The notes below the pieces were generated by a model that saw only the letters and a program-made list of their open reading frames with translations, was not told the origin of the DNA and made no database searches. DNA of 64,000 nt from assembly GCA_017987895.1 (NCBI GenBank), contig JAGNSU010000002.1, positions 74-64,073 on the forward strand, read 5' to 3'. A program made the position numbers and the translations under genes. This DNA comes from Flavobacteriales bacterium (GTDB lineage Bacteria; Bacteroidota; Bacteroidia; Flavobacteriales_F; PHOS-HE28). Below are positions 11,414 to 19,520 of this stretch, piece after piece. Every line of letters begins with the position of its first letter. The first letter of the stretch is position 1.

Positions 11414-12979
11414 TCAGGTGGCACTACTTATCCCCATCATATGTGTAAAGCGCCTTGCCCGGAGAAGTTCACAGAACTCCTTGAGGTTCTGGCTTAGTGC
11501 AGCAATCGTAAGTGCGTTACCCTTATCAGACTGATGTACATTGTACTGTGAACCCTCGAACCAACTACGCTTAGCATCATTCGCACTGTTGGCTATAGTA
11601 TTCAGATTTCGGCGAAGCGTGACGAACCTATCGCCAAGGGTAAACTCCGGCTCTGTAGTATTTATTTCTTTTTGGCCATACGCATCTACGCCGTACTTCT
11701 GAAAGAACATCTCCACGGGATTCTTGAGCTTCCTAGAAAGCAACGATGGGATGTAAAACGCACGTGCTACGCTATCCCTATCATCCTCCTGAATCGAACC
11801 GTCCACTTTCGTTAGCTTGTTCAATACCTCAAGCAGTGCGTCAATGCTGCCGAACACTGAGCACAACTGCTTAACGACTTGCATCATTGCAACGTCATCC
11901 GATGTCATTGTAAAGTGTGTCAGGTCCGTCAATCCAAGCTTCCGCATGGAATGATGCAACCCAACATCAACGGGATGATGAATCACAATGAAACAATCGA
12001 ATCCTGAAACCTTCGCTCGCATCAATTGCCTGACGGTCAGCCAACCCTTGTCCGCACATGCAGACAGTAGGATTTGGAGGACTACTTGTGCCGAAGGATT
12101 TGAGACACTTGAAGATGTTCGGCAGTATTCGGTTACAGTGTCAGATATGCTGAACTCGAAATGTTCCTCTGAAAGGAACTTGTCAATGTAGCCCTCAAAA
12201 TCGACCAAAGCACCATAACGATGCTGATATATGAGTCTTATGTTGTTGACGTCGCACACGAGTATGATTTTGTCGAATCCGAACTTATTTTCATCGGAAT
12301 CACTCTCCATATGAGCACTAAATATGTTCATGATTCTGAAGATATGCTCTGGGTCAAGGCGGTCTAAGTCATCCACTACCAGAAGCACGGCCTTGCCAGC
12401 CTCACGCTGCCGAGATATAATCGAGCGTATGTAGTCGGCTACGACACCACTTTCCCAAACAGAACTGGCGGATTGATGCAAGCTTTCGACAAACTCTGTA
12501 GCTCTGACAGCCTCTGGCTGTGATTCCCTTGTGAGCTTCTCCTCGAACTCATTGACATCCTTTACGAGATCCGAAATGGCTTGCATCACTCCACTGACCT
12601 TCTCCGTGAAAGGAATCGCCTTGGACAAGGCGGTTGCGAGATGACTTGAGAATGCTAAGGGGTTGCGGATGATGTACTGAAGCCAGACGTGTTGGATAGG
12701 CATTTTCCGCAACTCTTCTGGGGCGGCAAGACCTAATATGTAGAATTGGAGCAGCACGTCAGCCTTAACGATATTGAAGATGTCGTCATTGCTGCTCACA
12801 CTATAGTTCACCGGGTTTACTCGGACCATTACATACTCATACGACCTTGAACTAAAATACTCGCGGATAAAGGTTGACTTCCCAGTACCAAAAGGTCCAG
12901 ATACGATAGTTCGCTTGATGGCCGGGTTAGAAATGTGCATATCGAACCGCCTCGTAATCGCACCATAAGGTATTTCCAT
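11414..12979 (-). CDS. KAP-family P-loop NTPase
   Basis: Walker A GPFGTGKST, Walker B-like LLVVDDLDRLDPEH, and a large helical remainder. Visibly AT-richer than the neighbours. I chose the ATG giving MEIPYG; the track ORF extends to a TTG at 13024. Confidence 0.8.
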   Translation of the reverse strand: MEIPYGAITRRFDMHISNPAIKRTIVSGPFGTGKSTFIREYFSSRSYEYVMVRVNPVNYSVSSNDDIFNIVKADVLLQFYILGLAAPEELRKMPIQHVWLQYIIRNPLAFSSHLATALSKAIPFTEKVSGVMQAISDLVKDVNEFEEKLTRESQPEAVRATEFVESLHQSASSVWESGVVADYIRSIISRQREAGKAVLLVVDDLDRLDPEHIFRIMNIFSAHMESDSDENKFGFDKIILVCDVNNIRLIYQHRYGALVDFEGYIDKFLSEEHFEFSISDTVTEYCRTSSSVSNPSAQVVLQILLSACADKGWLTVRQLMRAKVSGFDCFIVIHHPVDVGLHHSMRKLGLTDLTHFTMTSDDVAMMQVVKQLCSVFGSIDALLEVLNKLTKVDGSIQEDDRDSVARAFYIPSLLSRKLKNPVEMFFQKYGVDAYGQKEINTTEPEFTLGDRFVTLRRNLNTIANSANDAKRSWFEGSQYNVHQSDKGNALTIAALSQNLKEFCELLRARRFTHMMGISSAT

Positions 12980-13182
12980 TGCAGCTGGTATAACTAGTGT
13001 GTCGAGAACAACCTGATGGAGCAAGTTAGTCTAGAGGGTGTAGCGCAAATGATGACTTGAGTGAACCCGACCGAAAAGTTGGGCGGCACGCCTCGCCGAC
13101 GCCGGGACGGCTATGGCGGAGCGCGTCAGGGCTTCGGCGGCCAAAGGAGCCCGTTGGTGGAACGCAGCCACGATCTTCAAGC

Positions 13183-14421: not shown

Positions 14422-14708
14422 GGTGTGATGTGGATAGGTGCCACGAGACTACTGACTTGAAGCTGCCCCCACAATACCGAGTTTCCGGGGGGTGGCACCC
14501 GTGTCCCTGCTATTTGGTCCACCATGCCCTGCCCCAGCGTCACCCCGATCTGGCGCAAGACTTCCGCGTGCGAAGACGGGTGTTGGGCAGGGCGCCTACA
14601 TCGCCTTCGCGTAGCCGCTTCGGCGGAGCAAGGCGCCAAAGCGCTTTGGCGACGGCGCGCGGGCGTATTGTGCCGCGTTCCTTGGATCTGTGGGCAAGGG
14701 CCAATGCA

Positions 14709-14740
14709 GCCACAAGCCACTGGCCTCAAGCCACAAGCTT
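14709..14740. repeat. Intergenic repeat gccacaagccactggcctcaagccacaagctt (copy 1)
   Basis: Identical 32-mer at 14945..14976. Degenerate relatives lie near 9741..9772 and 21046..21068. Confidence 0.85.
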
Positions 14741-14874
14741 TAACCGTGCTTTGCCAACGGAGAGCTTACACGGATCGGGAAGGTGGGCGGCACGCCTTCG
14801 CTACAGCTTCGGCGGCCAAAGGAGCCCATTGGTTGGTTGGTCATGTGGTTGTGATGGCTTCGAGCTTGGAATGC

Positions 14875-14899
14875 GGTCTATGGTCGTTGGTCCTAGGTC
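14875..14899. repeat. Intergenic repeat ggtctatggtcgttggtcctaggtc (copy 1)
   Basis: Perfect 25-mer repeated at 15351..15375. A degenerate copy lies at about 19028..19050. Confidence 0.85.
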
Positions 14900-14944
14900 T
14901 TGGGCGAGCTCAGCCTTGAGCCACGAGTTGCGAGCGGTATGCCA

Positions 14945-14976
14945 GCCACAAGCCACTGGCCTCAAGCCACAAGCTT
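14945..14976. repeat. Intergenic repeat gccacaagccactggcctcaagccacaagctt (copy 2)
   Basis: Identical to 14709..14740. The next ~45 nt are also similar (..ggagagc[t/c]tacacgg..). Confidence 0.85.
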
Positions 14977-15018
14977 GATGGGTGCTTCGCGAAATGGAGA
15001 GCCTACACGGTTCCATGG

Positions 15019-15312
15019 GAGATCCCGGATAGCCGCTGCCCGGTGCTGAATGCGGAGCCTGGTTTTCAAAATGCGGCTTGGAAACCACCCCTACCCCTCC
15101 TTATGTACTCGGGGCGAGGGATCGCCCCTCAGGAGGGGAGTTGAACGTTGAGGAGATCCCGGATAGCCGGGGCCCGGTGCTGAATGCGGAGCCTGGTTTT
15201 CAAAATGCGGCTTGGAAACCACCCCTACCGCTCCTTTGTACTCGGGGCGAGGGATCGCCCCTGAGGAGGGGAGTTGAACGTTGAGGAGATCCCGGATAGC
15301 CGGGGCCCTGAT
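15019..15312. repeat. Tandem repeat with a 133-134 bp unit, about 2.2 copies
   Basis: The unit start gagatcccggatagcc recurs at 15019, 15153 and 15286. The units are near-identical by eye and each contains the hairpin ggggcga-ggga-tcgcccc. Confidence 0.85.
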
Positions 15313-15350
15313 GCTGCGCATCACCCGGCTTCCGGGATGACGACGTGGTT

Positions 15351-15375
15351 GGTCTATGGTCGTTGGTCCTAGGTC
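15351..15375. repeat. Intergenic repeat ggtctatggtcgttggtcctaggtc (copy 2)
   Basis: Identical to 14875..14899. Confidence 0.85.
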
Positions 15376-15413
15376 CTAAGTGAAGGATGGCTGTCCGATG
15401 ACCCTTTGAACGC

Positions 15414-18400
15414 CTACCCTCTTGCCCTTACGGTGGCAGACATGAGCATGACGTTGTAGGGATTCCACACGGACATGGCGAAGTACATGGTGGTGGAGCC
15501 CTCGTGGTTCGGGGTGGTGAAGCGCTCGATGAGGTAGGGGGCGTAGACCCCACCGCCTTTATCCTCACGGCACGGGTCACTTAGACCATCGGGCTTGTTC
15601 TCTTCGTGGATGAACTGTCCGAACGCCGTACGCATATCCAGAATGTTCTCGGGACCGGACCATGGCCCCCAGGGATGCGGACTTTGGTGTTCCAGCACCA
15701 CGTACGGATTGTCCCCATTGTAGAGCATCACGAACCGGCTGATGAAGGGATTCCAGCGCACGCCGAACTCGCCTACCGAGCCGGAGAGGAAGAGCGGCCT
15801 GGCGGATGCCTCGTCGCGGCCCCACAGCGGCCTGGACGAGGCATCGGATCCTGCGAAGTAGCGAATGGCCGAACGATCCTCGAGCCGGTTCAAGGGGACG
15901 TGAGCCAGGTAGATGTTGCTGCGCCGATAGCCGCCACTACCGAAGATGAGGATGCCCTCGCCATCCACTTCTGGTAGACCAGGATGATCGAAGTTCCTTA
16001 AGCGTTGGAGCGAGACGTTGATGAATTTCTCACGCGAGAGCTCATAGAGCGATGTGCCGAAGTTCAAGCCATTGTCCTCCGACCGCGCTAGCACGCTGCG
16101 GTGCATGGAAACAAAGTCATCGGCGCTATCGCTAGCGATGCGGCCCGTGGTGAAGAAGACGAACATGCTGCTGCCGTTGGTGACCTGCTGGGCGAAACTC
16201 CATGGCAAGGCCACGTTCGCATTGTCATGAAAGAAATGTTGGAGCCGGCCGCCCACCGGAACGACCACTTCGAAATTGCCGTGACCACTGCCAAAGTCAG
16301 ACTGGATGATGCAGCCCGCATCCGTGATGCCCCTGGCGACGGTGTGGCCTCGTTGCCACCGGCCGGCCAGGTTGGCATTGTCATGGAAGTAGTGTGCGAG
16401 TTGGTCCCCCTCGGGCACAACGACCTCGAAGTTGCCATGGTCACCGCCTTTGAAATCGGACTGCATGATGCAACCGGGGCCGCTAGCATGATCGGTGATG
16501 ACGCGGCCGCGTTGCCATTGGGTATGGCCGCTGTAATTATCCAGGAAGTAGTGTACCAATTGGTTGCCCTCCAGAACAACCACTTCGAAATTGCCGTGTT
16601 CGCTGCCGAAGTCGGACTGGATGATGCACCCCGGGCCCGTGGCGCGATCGGTGATGACGCCGGCGCGTTGCCACTGTGCGGGGCTGCCGGAATTGTCGCG
16701 GAAGTAGTGGACCAGTTCATTCCCCTCCAGGACGACCACTTCGAAATTGCGGTGGTCGCTGCCGAAGTCGGACTGGATGATGCAACCCGGGCCGGTGGCC
16801 TGCGCGGTGATAATGCCGGCGCGTTGCCATGTTGCCGGACCGCCGGAGTTGACGAGGAAGTAGTGGACCAGGTTATGGCCCTCCAGCACCACCACTTCGA
16901 AATTGCCGTGGCCGCTGCCGAAGTCGGACTGCATGATGCACCCTGGACCGGTGGCTTGGGTGCTGATGGTCTGCGCGCATTGCCATGGCGTGCGGACATC
17001 GGTGTTATCATGCCACCAATGGTTCAGCCGTTGCCCTTGCAGGACCACTACTTCAAAATTCCGGTGGATGAGGCCGTAGGTGCTACGGATGATCCAGCCA
17101 GGACCGCTTTCCTTTCGTTCGAAGCTGATGCCATCGGTGGGTACGCAGAAGGCATTCTGCACAATGTCGTCCACCTTGGGAGCGCTGGGATTGAACTTCA
17201 GTTCGATATCCTTCAAGACCACCGTATCGGAACAGAAGGCGATGCTGTCGCGTGCGAGACCGTCATCGGTACGGATGACACCATCCACGTTCGTATCCCC
17301 GAAAAGGAAGGCGAGCCGGCCATCGTGCTCGAACGCTTGACCGAGGTCCGTGCCTGTGACGCCGTAGCGGCTGTGCGTGCGACTGCGTGTAGGTTGTTTC
17401 AGCTGGCGGTCTTCCTCCCCGGTGAGTTGAGCGATCTTCTTGGTGTCACATATATGCGGCGACTCCTTGTATGGTTCAGCGAACCTTTCGCGTAGGACGG
17501 AGGATCGCCACCACGGCGTATCGCCACTGGTGTTGTGGTGAACGTAGTGAACGACCGAACGCGTGACCTCCGCCGCCAAGACCTCGTAGTTAGCACGCTC
17601 GCCAAGCAGCAACGGGCCATTGGCCCCCCGGGTGCCGCGCGCGATGCATCCCGGACCGCCAGAGGCAACGCTGACCACCTGGCCCCGCTTCCACGTGCGC
17701 ACCGGTGCTGAGTTGTCGAGGAAATAGTGCACGAGTTCATTCTCTTCCAACACGACTACCTCGAAGTTCTTGTGTCCGCTACCGAAGTAGCCCTGGATGA
17801 TGGAGCCTGCGCCGCTTGCCAGATCGGTGACCACCCCGACGCGCTGCCATTGCGCCGGGCCGCCGGCATTGTCCAAGAAGTAGTGTACGAGGTCCCTTCC
17901 CTCCAGCACGACCACTTCGAAGTTGCCGTGCTGGCTGCCAAAGTCGGACTGAATGATACAACCAGGCCCTGTGGCGCGCCCTGTGATGACCCCCACGCGT
18001 TGCCACTGAGAAGCACCGCCGTAGTTGTCCAGGAAGTAGTGGACCAGTAGATTTCCCTCTGGCACCACCACTTCGAAGTTGCCGTGGTTGCTGCCGAAAT
18101 CGGACTGGATGATGCAGCCCGGACCAGTGGCTTTTGTGCTGATGACCTGTGCGCGTTGCCATGGTGCGTTGCCGCTGTGGTTGTCCAGGAAGTAGTGCAC
18201 GAGTTCATTCCCTTCCAACGCGACCACCTCGAAGTTGCCGTGGTTGCTGCCAAAGTCGGACTGGATGAGGCCCCCCGGGCCGGTCGCTTTTGTGGTGATG
18301 GGCTTAACCTCTATCCACTTTCTCCCCTCACTCCCCCCTCTAGCTTCCGAGTAATAGTGCCACAAGGTGCCGTTGCTGAAGAGGACCGCTTCCAAGTGGT

Positions 18401-18455
18401 TGGGTGTACCGAAATCACTGCTGATGAGGCATCCAGGGCCGACGAGATCCGACAT
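15414..18455 (-). CDS. 1013-aa repeat protein with 6 propeller-blade repeats, a DUF4185-like N-half, 6 more blade repeats, then a DUF4185-like C-half
   Basis: Twelve ~52-aa repeats with consensus TGPGCIIQSDFGSxHGNFEVVVLEGNxLVHYFLDNxGxxxxWQRAGVIT. The flanking parts carry DUF4185-type motifs (GVTGTDLGQAFEHDGRLAFLFGDT; YRRSNIYLAHVP; WNPFISRFVMLYNG; VYAPYLIERF; MSVWNPYNVMLMS). No signal peptide or T9SS CTD is visible. Confidence 0.85.
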   Translation of the reverse strand: MSDLVGPGCLISSDFGTPNHLEAVLFSNGTLWHYYSEARGGSEGRKWIEVKPITTKATGPGGLIQSDFGSNHGNFEVVALEGNELVHYFLDNHSGNAPWQRAQVISTKATGPGCIIQSDFGSNHGNFEVVVPEGNLLVHYFLDNYGGASQWQRVGVITGRATGPGCIIQSDFGSQHGNFEVVVLEGRDLVHYFLDNAGGPAQWQRVGVVTDLASGAGSIIQGYFGSGHKNFEVVVLEENELVHYFLDNSAPVRTWKRGQVVSVASGGPGCIARGTRGANGPLLLGERANYEVLAAEVTRSVVHYVHHNTSGDTPWWRSSVLRERFAEPYKESPHICDTKKIAQLTGEEDRQLKQPTRSRTHSRYGVTGTDLGQAFEHDGRLAFLFGDTNVDGVIRTDDGLARDSIAFCSDTVVLKDIELKFNPSAPKVDDIVQNAFCVPTDGISFERKESGPGWIIRSTYGLIHRNFEVVVLQGQRLNHWWHDNTDVRTPWQCAQTISTQATGPGCIMQSDFGSGHGNFEVVVLEGHNLVHYFLVNSGGPATWQRAGIITAQATGPGCIIQSDFGSDHRNFEVVVLEGNELVHYFRDNSGSPAQWQRAGVITDRATGPGCIIQSDFGSEHGNFEVVVLEGNQLVHYFLDNYSGHTQWQRGRVITDHASGPGCIMQSDFKGGDHGNFEVVVPEGDQLAHYFHDNANLAGRWQRGHTVARGITDAGCIIQSDFGSGHGNFEVVVPVGGRLQHFFHDNANVALPWSFAQQVTNGSSMFVFFTTGRIASDSADDFVSMHRSVLARSEDNGLNFGTSLYELSREKFINVSLQRLRNFDHPGLPEVDGEGILIFGSGGYRRSNIYLAHVPLNRLEDRSAIRYFAGSDASSRPLWGRDEASARPLFLSGSVGEFGVRWNPFISRFVMLYNGDNPYVVLEHQSPHPWGPWSGPENILDMRTAFGQFIHEENKPDGLSDPCREDKGGGVYAPYLIERFTTPNHEGSTTMYFAMSVWNPYNVMLMSATVRARG

Positions 18456-18629
18456 GTTATGATCGATAAAGGGTTAGTTCTTCTGATGCGAAGCGAATAT
18501 CGGGAACCCGTGTTTAGAGGAACACCCCACGAACGTGGGGGCGGTGCTGTTCCACTATTCGCGTTGACGGTAGTGATCGTGAAGCCATAGTGGTGAGGGG
18601 CCCGGGTGACATCATGACCCGCATTCTTC

Positions 18630-18998
18630 TTAGTCAGGGTCTTTGGCGAAGAGGTTGGCTTGGTGGGTAAGGTGAAAGCCTTCGCAGATGGGGCAGCGGT
18701 AGATGCGCATGCGGCCGCGGCCGGCTTTCCAGATCTTGCTGACAGCACGGTTGGCGCCGTGTTCGGTGTAGATGAATTTGCCGCGGCAGGTGTTGTCCAC
18801 ACGTGGACGGTGAATGATGCGGGTGAGGGTGATGTAGCGGGCGCGGTCCTCCAATCTGGTGCGTTCGCCGAGAGTGAGGCTGTCCAAGTTCTTGAGGGCG
18901 CGCTCGCGGACGTCCGGCTCGGTGAAGCGGAAGAGTTCTTCGTGGAGCCGTGGGTGACTCTTGAGGATCTTGGGGAGGAGTGGGCGGGGTTTGGCCAT
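18630..18998 (-). CDS. small basic protein with a C-terminal zinc-ribbon-like motif
   Basis: Starts MAKPRPLLPK and ends ...RMRIYRCPICEGFHLTHQANLFAKDPD (CxxC plus His residues). No family recognised. Confidence 0.5.
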   Translation of the reverse strand: MAKPRPLLPKILKSHPRLHEELFRFTEPDVRERALKNLDSLTLGERTRLEDRARYITLTRIIHRPRVDNTCRGKFIYTEHGANRAVSKIWKAGRGRMRIYRCPICEGFHLTHQANLFAKDPD

Positions 18999-19079
18999 GG
19001 CAGCGAGCAACGGACGGTTGGTGCTGTGACTATGGTCGTTGGGACTAGGTGGACACGGAGCCGAGGAGGATGGGTACGT

Positions 19080-19107
19080 GGTGAGTGGTGAGTGGTGAGT
19101 GGTGAGT
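19080..19107. repeat. Heptanucleotide microsatellite (GGTGAGT)x4
   Basis: ggtgagtggtgagtggtgagtggtgagt, between the HTH gene stop and the Zn-ribbon gene start. Confidence 0.85.
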
Positions 19108-19133
19108 GGAATGCCAGCCTGGAGCTGCTGACT

Positions 19134-19520
19134 TCAGGCTTCAAGCTGGCCGCCGGCTTCGGGCTTGGGTGGGGAAAGGCGGGCGGTGAGTTCTTCGGTG
19201 AGGGATTGAAGGCGGTCCAAGGGAAGTTTCTCGATGATGGTGGCGATGGGTAGTGGCGGGGTCTCCTGGCGAACAAGGATGGTGAGGGTGTCTTCCGCTG
19301 GCGGTGGTGCACCGGGACCTGGTGTATAGCTGAGCATATCGTGGACGGTACACTTAAGCAAATGGCAGAGACGCTCGATGTGGCCGCACTTGAGCGTGCT
19401 GAATTTGCCGTGGAGGATACGATTGGAGGTATGGTGGCTGAAGCCTTTCTTACGCAACCAGGCGAAGGGTTCGGTGATGCCGCGCATTTTGATGATGCGG
19501 GCCGGATCGAAGGATAGCAT
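19134..19520 (-). CDS. XRE-like helix-turn-helix protein with a Pro-rich C-terminal tail
   Basis: Starts at the ATG giving MLSFDPARIIKMRGITEPFAWLRKKGFSHHTSNRILHGKFSTLKCGHIERLCHLLKCTVHDMLSY. This pattern is common in short Bacteroidota HTH regulators. The longer track ORF (to 19757) has no support upstream. Confidence 0.7.
   Translation of the reverse strand: MLSFDPARIIKMRGITEPFAWLRKKGFSHHTSNRILHGKFSTLKCGHIERLCHLLKCTVHDMLSYTPGPGAPPPAEDTLTILVRQETPPLPIATIIEKLPLDRLQSLTEELTARLSPPKPEAGGQLEA

Follow-up and report, generated by a model that had tools for sequence, protein, structure and literature searches.

The window analysed here is a stretch of 64,000 nucleotides from a metagenome-assembled genome (MAG) of a Flavobacteriales bacterium (GenBank assembly GCA_017987895.1, contig JAGNSU010000002.1), and the gene of interest is an open reading frame (ORF) on its minus strand (15414..18455). 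The ORF encodes 1013 amino acids followed by a stop codon, which makes the product large, though not giant as a preliminary description of this DNA had called it. No upstream extension is possible because the ORF is already maximal, and its product is identical to an entry in the public protein collection (P0001; homologous proteins and genomic loci are referred to by P and L numbers). The protein contains two blocks of tandem repeats and a DUF4185 domain (PF13810), the second repeat block lying inside that domain (Table 1).

The six plus six repeats that had been read from the translation were confirmed in content and position. Repeat units were located by an NFEVV motif anchor and then with a hidden Markov model (HMM) made from the copies, which gave exactly 12 units of ~52 residues, and Tandem Repeats Finder reported two arrays with a period of 156 bp and 74-80% matches. 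The internal units r2-4 and r8-10 have protein identities of 69-79% and DNA identities of 72-83%, whereas the units at the ends of the blocks (r1, r6, r7 and r12) are far more divergent. Over all units the DNA identity is 50-83%, and no two units share an exact DNA match longer than 29 nt.

Against Pfam PF13810 the whole protein scores 118.6 bits in two stretches, the gathering cut-off being 39.5. The segment upstream of the second repeat block, taken alone, matches profile positions 4-61 (E 4.7e-7) and the segment downstream matches positions 127-308 (E 2.1e-27). When the insert is spliced out, positions 4-308 of 309 are matched in one continuous stretch (E 4.4e-37), which is diagnostic of one domain split by an insertion and not of two incomplete ones. 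The presence of DUF4185 on both flanks, as had been proposed, is thus supported by each flank alone and by the complete spliced domain, and the boundaries that had been assigned to the insert (FCVPTDGISFERKE before it and SSMFVFFTTGR after it) are correct.

DUF4185 corresponds to glycoside hydrolase family 183 (GH183) of CAZy, the characterised members of which are retaining endo-alpha-D-arabinofuranases that act on mycobacterial arabinogalactan and lipoarabinomannan (PMC10115798, PMC10509167). EndoMA1 (PDB 8HHV/8IC1) is a five-bladed beta-propeller in which Asp33 is the nucleophile, Asp51 is the acid/base, and Glu243 is essential and positions Arg198, while Trp138, Pro141, Leu292 and Tyr293 contact the substrate (PMC10509167). 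The catalytic Asp residues are 17-18 residues apart, as in D33/D51 of EndoMA1 and D170/D188 of DgGH4185b (PMC10115798). The window protein matches EndoMA1 directly (E 7e-10), and a profile built from 12 DUF4185 cores in its subfamily does so with an E of 5.5e-26 (8hhv). In these alignments Asp33, Asp51, Arg198 and Glu243 of EndoMA1 correspond to D370 (in GTDLG), D387 (in FGDT), R844 and E896, with the two Asp residues preceding the insert and the Arg and Glu residues following it. D370, D387 and E896 are invariant in an alignment of 79 sequences, R844 is at least 90% conserved, and Tyr293 of EndoMA1 aligns to a Phe that retains its aromatic character. On sequence grounds, the window protein is a GH183 member by its profile match, its Asp pair, and its Glu and Arg residues.

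Table 1. Positions of the repeat protein, its parts and neighbouring features in the window
Feature	Position	Strand	Basis
Whole three-propeller protein	15414..18455	-	ORF, identity to P0001, AlphaFold2 (AF2) model
N-terminal six-repeat lectin-like propeller, aa 1-321	17493..18455	-	repeat HMM; four strands per repeat in AF2
N-terminal blades	r1 18303-18455, r2 18141-18296, r3 17985-18140, r4 17829-17984, r5 17673-17828, r6 17493-17669	-	
Linker and N-terminal GH183/DUF4185 part, aa 322-445	17121..17492	-	PF13810 positions 4-61
D370, nucleophile equivalent	17346-17348	-	alignment to EndoMA1 Asp33
D387, acid/base equivalent	17295-17297	-	alignment to EndoMA1 Asp51
Inserted six-repeat lectin-like propeller, aa 446-758	16182..17120	-	repeat HMM, stand-alone AF2, Foldseek
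Insert blades	r7 16965-17120, r8 16809-16964, r9 16653-16808, r10 16497-16652, r11 16338-16496, r12 16182-16337	-	
C-terminal GH183/DUF4185 part and stop, aa 759-1013	15414..16181	-	PF13810 positions 127-308; 8hhv/8ic1 alignment
R844	15924-15926	-	alignment to EndoMA1 Arg198
E896	15768-15770	-	alignment to EndoMA1 Glu243
156-bp arrays	16251-17067, 17869-18300		Tandem Repeats Finder
KAP-family P-loop NTPase gene	11414-13024	-	
Lipoprotein-like gene, 412 aa	13183-14421	-	lipoprotein-type N-terminus (…LIITAGCG…)
Repeat-rich intergenic stretch, ~1 kb	14422-15413		
134-bp unit x2.2, 95% identity	15018-15316		
Stretch of strong GC skew	18500-19500		
GTGGTGA x4.6, perfect array	19078-19109		
Gene with two-component regulator propeller repeats, 364 aa	21972-23066	+	Pfam Reg_prop, E 3e-40

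Predicted structure and geometry of the insertion

AlphaFold2 modelling of the full chain with the 79-sequence alignment gave a mean predicted local distance difference test (pLDDT) score of 91.5 and a predicted template modelling (pTM) score of 0.86, with four strands in each repeat and pLDDT values of about 93-98 in the DUF4185 segments. For a chain of three domains, a pTM of 0.86 suggests a defined inter-domain arrangement. Modelled on its own, the insert (aa 446-762) has a pLDDT of 91.6, a pTM of 0.91 and 24 strands. The strand pattern of the DUF4185 part is consistent with five four-stranded blades, and by repeat and strand counts the protein would possess 6 + 5 + 6 blades, or ~17 in total.

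In a Foldseek comparison of the insert with the PDB, the top 13 matches were all propeller lectins. The seven-bladed Photorhabdus lectins PHL/PLL matched with E values of 6e-10 to 1e-8, a probability of 1.0 and template modelling (TM) scores of 0.58-0.66, and single-chain six-bladed RSL (4csd, 7e7t, 7e7w) superposed with target-side TM-scores (TMt) of 0.75-0.80 and a root-mean-square deviation (rmsd) of 3.3-3.9 Å. Sialidases, GH93 and WD40-type propellers ranked below the lectins, with E values of 1e-6 or weaker. Of the lectin- or sialidase-like character that had been suggested for the blades, the lectin part therefore holds at the level of the fold, whereas sialidases appear only as weaker matches. 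The confident stand-alone model of the insert and its superposition on a six-bladed lectin show that it does not belong to a single continuous propeller, and the split domain of the preliminary description stands. The catalytic-type DUF4185 fold proposed there is also predicted with high confidence, with the adjustment that DUF4185 is GH183 and itself a five-bladed propeller; the arrangement would therefore be that of a propeller nested in a propeller.

Relatives that lack the insert show what it interrupts. In these proteins the strands '…F(E/C)VPxDG(I/V)S' and 'M(Y/F)VFF(T/S)TD…' are linked by a turn of 3-6 residues, for which the family consensus is 'xNGx' and which in P0015 reads 'GPASTP'. 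The corresponding host strands in the AF2 model are residues 439-445 and 763-770, and the insertion site equates to ~Val124-Arg127 of EndoMA1, one strand ahead of the loop in which Trp138 and Pro141 are located. Judging from strand order, the insert would split the tight hairpin between strands 1 and 2 of blade 2, such that residues 322-445 would comprise blade 1 together with strand 1 of blade 2, and residues 759-1013 the remainder of blade 2 through blade 5. D370 is found close to where a first strand starts, and D387 close to where a second strand ends. Since both residues must face the active site, turns between first and second strands should be on the opposite face, and the insert would thus project from the back of the catalytic propeller, where it should not block catalysis.

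It is improbable that the insertion inactivated the enzyme and left a pseudo-enzyme that serves as a large multivalent lectin. Such a loss could be imagined from the location of the 313-residue insert one strand upstream of the EndoMA1 substrate-contact loop and from a relative (P0017/L003) that has lost the catalytic N-terminal part, but D370, D387 and E896 are invariant both in the insertion clade and in the wider family, the DUF4185 core is modelled at a pLDDT of 93-98, and the turn bearing the insert is predicted to be on the face away from the active site.

The repeat family and the history of the insert

A consensus of GPGxIIQSDFGxxHGNFEVVVxEGxxLVHYxHDNSDVxxPWxRGQ was derived from 736 repeats. 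When the insert was used as the query of an exhaustive search, 1099 clusters (50% identity) were recovered at E <=1e-3, of which 190 were found at E <=1e-30. The propeller module occurs as a stand-alone protein of ~330-360 aa, N-terminal to DUF4185, and within very large proteins; it also adjoins M12B metallopeptidase and S8 subtilase domains, and is found with borderline, sub-threshold matches to BNR repeats. In this respect it behaves as a portable binding module, and the fold neighbours together with the modular distribution suggest carbohydrate as a putative ligand. The repeat family is widespread yet has no Pfam model, and it is probably a new carbohydrate-binding module family that would be worth an entry in Pfam or CAZy.

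Several known families were considered for the repeats and rejected. Pfam matches such as those to Ig_GP210_16th, Fn3-III_PB4, eEFSec_4th and pulA_all-beta are regarded as sporadic artefacts produced by the summing of weak repeat scores, because they vary from protein to protein, and a search of NCBIfam returned noise only. Membership of the RSL/AAL lectins at the sequence level was rejected since there was no Pfam or PDB sequence match and the repeat consensus has no conserved Arg, a member of the Arg/Glu/Trp fucose triad. DUF346, the family of PLL/PHL, was likewise rejected at the sequence level, and the window propellers have six blades (24 strands) and not seven.

The six-bladed propellers could instead be scaffolds for protein-protein contacts or oligomerisation, of the WD40 or DDB1 type, with the enzyme as the catalytic subunit of a larger complex. 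The best whole-chain Foldseek matches of the full-length model are DDB1, CPSF160 and SF3b130, the conserved H/S/D/W-type residues of the repeats could be structural, the module travels with M12B and S8 peptidases as well as with GH183, and the three-blade inserts of two relatives (P0006 and P0008, see below) would need a partner for closure. The TM-scores of the whole-chain matches are only ~0.2, however, so that the likeness is one of layout and propeller number and not of homology. In addition, the 13 best matches at the domain level are all lectins, with WD40-type propellers lower, and no conserved partner gene was found at the loci compared. A scaffold is accordingly rated as rather unlikely. 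The full-length model also matches PHL/PLL and Vibrio cholerae neuraminidase (ranks 37 and 40) and EndoMA1 (8ic1/8hhv; E 1.4e-10), the latter with a TMt of 0.37 and an rmsd of 21 Å, values that are poor because the alignment runs across the insert.

An N-terminal propeller is common among the relatives of the window protein. About 100 of the top 120 homologues, including proteins of Bacillus cereus (P0022) and Angustibacter luteus (P0104), carry an uninterrupted DUF4185 domain preceded by N-terminal repeats, which are six in number and occasionally 5 or 7. When species-representative genomes were searched, an alignment query found 548 loci and a single-protein query found none. Among the best 80 of the 548 loci, the form with an N-terminal propeller is present in Pseudonocardiaceae, Acidobacteriota, Chitinophaga rupis, Actinoallomurus and others, and relatives with DUF4185 only are frequent in Nitrososphaeraceae archaea. 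The closest of these DUF4185-only relatives (L050-L081, from Nitrososphaeraceae and other archaeal MAGs) are 41-45% identical to the window protein over residues 338-1009 and lack the propeller module. To our knowledge, GH183 in ammonia-oxidising Nitrososphaeraceae is not discussed in the GH183 papers cited here.

The nested second propeller is far more restricted, being found in ~15 clusters (90% identity) that consist of P0001-P0014, two frameshifted forms (P0016 and P0018) and a deletion form (P0017). In the species representatives there is one clear case, L002, from a genome labelled uncultured betaproteobacterium, along with the deletion form L003 (Terriglobia). The architecture had been called unusual, which is true of the internal insertion but not of the combination of an N-terminal propeller with DUF4185. 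Close homologues (52-62% identity) come from MAGs labelled Flavobacteriales, Betaproteobacteria and Terriglobia, and the same 6 + 6 architecture was found in the independent assemblies L001, L002, L082 and L083. Repeats can be mis-joined during assembly, and P0016, P0018 and P0017 are indeed frameshifted or truncated, but the 6 + 6 layout and its junctions recur unchanged in at least 10 independent full-length homologues obtained from different samples and with different assemblers, the flanks splice into a perfect DUF4185 domain, and the DNA identity of the repeats is only 50-83%. That the gene is an artefact of assembly or gene calling is very improbable.

Inserts from different genomes have a mean identity of 64% to one another and 53.5% to the N-terminal propeller of their own protein, and they are no closer to N-terminal propellers within the clade than to those outside it (55%). 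On the basis of these identities, recent intragenic duplication was rejected as the origin of the insert. Because the inserts are alike across genomes and their junctions are identical throughout the clade, they represent one old insertion that is orthologous across the clade. The identities indicate that there has been no strong concerted evolution between the two repeat blocks, and that the nested propeller arose once in a small clade and then spread vertically or horizontally. A neighbour-joining tree of the propellers was poorly resolved, and duplication and acquisition of a paralogue are not separable by it.

Blade number, as judged from the homologues, has changed over evolutionary time. 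P0006 and P0008, both from JGI metagenome contigs, share an in-register deletion of exactly three insert blades, and P0008 additionally lacks one N-terminal blade. The remaining three-blade insert cannot close alone, and dimerisation might complete the propeller. Flanking sequence places P0015 in the same clade; it has no insert and five N-terminal blades. P0017, which is encoded at 5001-7154 of L003 (Terriglobia MAG JAIQEY010000042.1), is a protein of 718 aa in which an N-terminal blade is fused straight to the '…PCDGVSVGRS…' strand, with deletion of the part of DUF4185 that bears both catalytic Asp residues; it is possibly a natural pseudo-enzyme or the result of assembly collapse. The suggestion that the DNA repeats allow copy-number variation thus agrees with the differences among homologues, but present-day change in the window genome was not shown, since its DNA repeats are only moderately similar.

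Proposed function and genomic surroundings

Taken together, these results favour a soluble, single-chain, lectin-tethered, leaderless, retaining GH183 endo-glycanase with three propellers, one of them nested in the catalytic propeller, a reading to which we assign a probability of roughly 0.6. The catalytic unit would be the five-bladed GH183 propeller, in which the residues expected of a retaining glycosidase are complete, with D370 as the nucleophile, D387 as the acid/base, and E896 and R844 in supporting roles. The two six-bladed propellers would function as multivalent glycan-binding modules with up to ~12 repeated sites, and would hold the endo-acting catalytic unit on a polymeric or surface-bound glycan. 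By analogy with the characterised enzymes, the substrate may be a D-arabinofuranan-like polymer, or it may be a different one.

A number of observations weigh against this reading. As regards sugar binding, the propeller had no match among PDB sequences, either as a single sequence or as a 13-member profile, and so has no sequence link to a characterised lectin. The Pfam DUF346 match of the window insert (E 0.085) is below the cut-off, and just one of 13 family propellers matches that model. In PHL/PLL the fucose site comprises two Trp residues (PMC5584973), and an equivalent site is not evident in the repeats because each has a single conserved Trp. The conserved Q-S-D-F, H-G-N-F-E, H, N and W positions could have a structural role, in a network comparable to the WD40 tetrad, instead of forming sugar sites. 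As regards catalysis, no clear equivalents of Trp138 and Pro141 of EndoMA1 were found by alignment in the loop that follows the insert, and specificity may therefore differ from D-arabinan. Strand counts, strand topology and fold matches are the basis for predicting that the propellers close, how many blades the core has and how the insert is placed relative to the active site.

Localisation is a further difficulty. Blade 1 is at the very start of the protein and the last DUF4185 strand at its very end, and a hydropathy heuristic and Pfam detected no hydrophobic leader, lipobox or type IX secretion system (T9SS) tail, in agreement with the preliminary description. Sec, Tat or lipoprotein leaders occur in about 40% of the wider family and in none of the insertion clade. 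No conserved operon, glycan-utilisation locus, secretion system or immunity gene was found at the window and four other loci. Access to an extracellular glycan is left unexplained since signal peptide, T9SS tail and glycan-utilisation neighbours are all lacking.

The absence of a leader could also signify that the protein is a toxin, an antibacterial or envelope-degrading effector that is delivered by specialised export or released by lysis, whose propellers bind a receptor or target glycan, and whose gene spreads horizontally. GH183 proteins that lack a Sec signal include, according to a paper of 2026, inter-mycobacterial toxins secreted by the type VII secretion system (EatA; PMC13444075). 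That the entire insertion clade is leaderless, unlike the wider family, would accord with delivery of this kind, as would the presence of close homologues in MAGs of Flavobacteriales, Betaproteobacteria and Terriglobia and the variable, mobile contexts of the genes. P0002 adjoins an integrase and TraG, and the window gene is near a low-GC KAP-family NTPase gene and a helix-turn-helix (HTH) gene and is followed on the same strand by a lipoprotein-like gene. On the other hand, no conserved secretion system, LXG/WXG-type targeting domain, accessory gene or immunity gene lies alongside, P0011 and P0013 stand alone on the opposite strand amid his-biosynthesis and ribosomal genes, and the lipoprotein-like gene is not conserved beside homologues elsewhere. 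PADLOC and PHROGs gave no match for the propeller gene, so a defence-system or phage reading is unsupported. An effector role is tentative and considerably less likely than the tethered glycanase, although it concerns the biology and is compatible with the same biochemistry. Equally tentative is a broader proposal in which an uncatalogued six-bladed glycan-binding family serves as a portable targeting module and the rigid, nested, leaderless, mobile enzyme is directed at a furanoside polymer of the cell surface that is not mycobacterial D-arabinan, perhaps as an inter-bacterial or anti-envelope weapon, with the inserts of P0006 and P0008 closing at a dimer interface.

The neighbours of the gene in the window are the KAP-family NTPase, the lipoprotein-like ORF, a small ORF and an HTH protein. 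One neighbour has a weak match to a T9SS C-terminal domain, and the FtsK protein encoded in the window has 98% identity to one from a MAG labelled Flavobacteriales bacterium, which together place the host in Bacteroidota. The KAP-family gene is in a patch of 46-47% GC, against ~60% elsewhere, which suggests a horizontally acquired, island-like segment adjoining the propeller gene; it also has a weak match to the PADLOC candidate PDC-S20 (E 3e-7). The lipoprotein-like gene downstream of the propeller gene belongs to no Pfam family. Between these two genes the intergenic DNA is rich in repeats, which include GCCACAAGCCACTGGCCTCAAGCCACAAGCTT at ~14708 and ~14944 and GGTCTATGGTCGTTGGTCCTAGGTC at ~14876 and ~15352, and which could constitute an element like a repetitive extragenic palindrome or miniature inverted-repeat transposable element (REP/MITE), or a regulatory array. 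Rfam and tRNA scans of the window were empty. The DNA just upstream of the propeller gene, where a 126-aa ORF and an HTH_26 ORF are located, has a strong local GC skew (+0.24 to +0.32), and the 7-mer array is found there as well. The protein with two-component regulator propeller repeats is an unrelated second propeller protein. At other loci, P0004 is located among small hypothetical genes, and its flanks (L082, JGI 3300055049, a contig of 139.6 kb) contain Pfam matches to F-box/F-box-like and RRM_1, which are of eukaryote type and unusual in bacteria.

GH183 was recognised in 2023 and has so far been known for its specificity for D-arabinan and its association with the cell walls of mycobacteria, the accessory domain being either a beta-sandwich or helical. 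The present findings point to a large GH183 subfamily beyond Mycobacteriales with an uncatalogued lectin-like propeller as its accessory domain, and to a rare clade that nests this propeller inside the enzyme. The new elements are the propeller-in-propeller insertion and the uncatalogued repeat family; the GH183 family and the N-terminal module are common. Leaderless forms have spread horizontally among Bacteroidota, Proteobacteria and Acidobacteriota, which suggests that GH183 has substrates or roles beyond arabinogalactan remodelling. The window protein resolves no long-standing question, its function being predicted from sequence and model, but a natural hairpin insertion of one propeller into another that exists in six-blade, three-blade and no-insert forms should be useful for protein engineering and for studies of fold evolution.

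Comparison with known systems

The GH183 endo-alpha-D-arabinanases (EndoMA1, DgGH4185a/b, Rv3707c and EatA) share the Pfam family and the catalytic positions of the window protein, although EndoMA1 is only ~17% identical to it. The accessory domains are different, being six-bladed propellers in the window protein, a C-terminal beta-sandwich in EndoMA1 and an N-terminal helical targeting domain in EatA, and in the window protein one of them is nested in the catalytic fold. The window gene is not part of an arabinan-utilisation locus and its host is a Flavobacteriales MAG; Flavobacteriales are not known to produce D-arabinan.

Proteins in which the propeller precedes an uninterrupted DUF4185 domain (P0022, P0104, L045 of Chitinophaga rupis, and proteins of many Pseudonocardiaceae MAGs) are nearer relatives, with 35-59% identity to the window protein. 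They share with it the repeat family, the six-blade N-terminal module, the linker motif QLTGE.DR and the DUF4185 subfamily. They differ in having the 3-6 residue hairpin turn in place of the second propeller, and many of them possess, unlike the window protein, a leader of the Sec, Tat or lipoprotein type as well as C-terminal extensions.

The lectins PLL/PHL and RSL/AAL resemble the window propellers in that their four-stranded blades are formed from tandem repeats of ~50 aa. Sequence identity is 10-19%, PLL/PHL have seven blades where the window propellers have six, and the window propeller forms part of an enzyme, whereas these lectins are free proteins. DDB1, CPSF160 and SF3b130 likewise place three propellers in a chain of ~1000-1200 residues, but these are seven-bladed, non-enzymatic, protein-binding scaffolds of eukaryotes and are not homologous.

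The closest precedent for the layout that we can offer is the neuraminidase of Vibrio cholerae (PDB 1KIT/6EKU). Crennell et al. are said to have described in 1994 how this enzyme consists of an N-terminal lectin domain, a catalytic propeller, and a second lectin domain inserted in the catalytic propeller. The two proteins are not homologous, as the neuraminidase is a GH33 enzyme with a six-bladed catalytic propeller and its lectin domains are beta-sandwiches, whereas in the window protein the catalytic propeller is predicted to have five blades and the lectin-like domains are themselves propellers.

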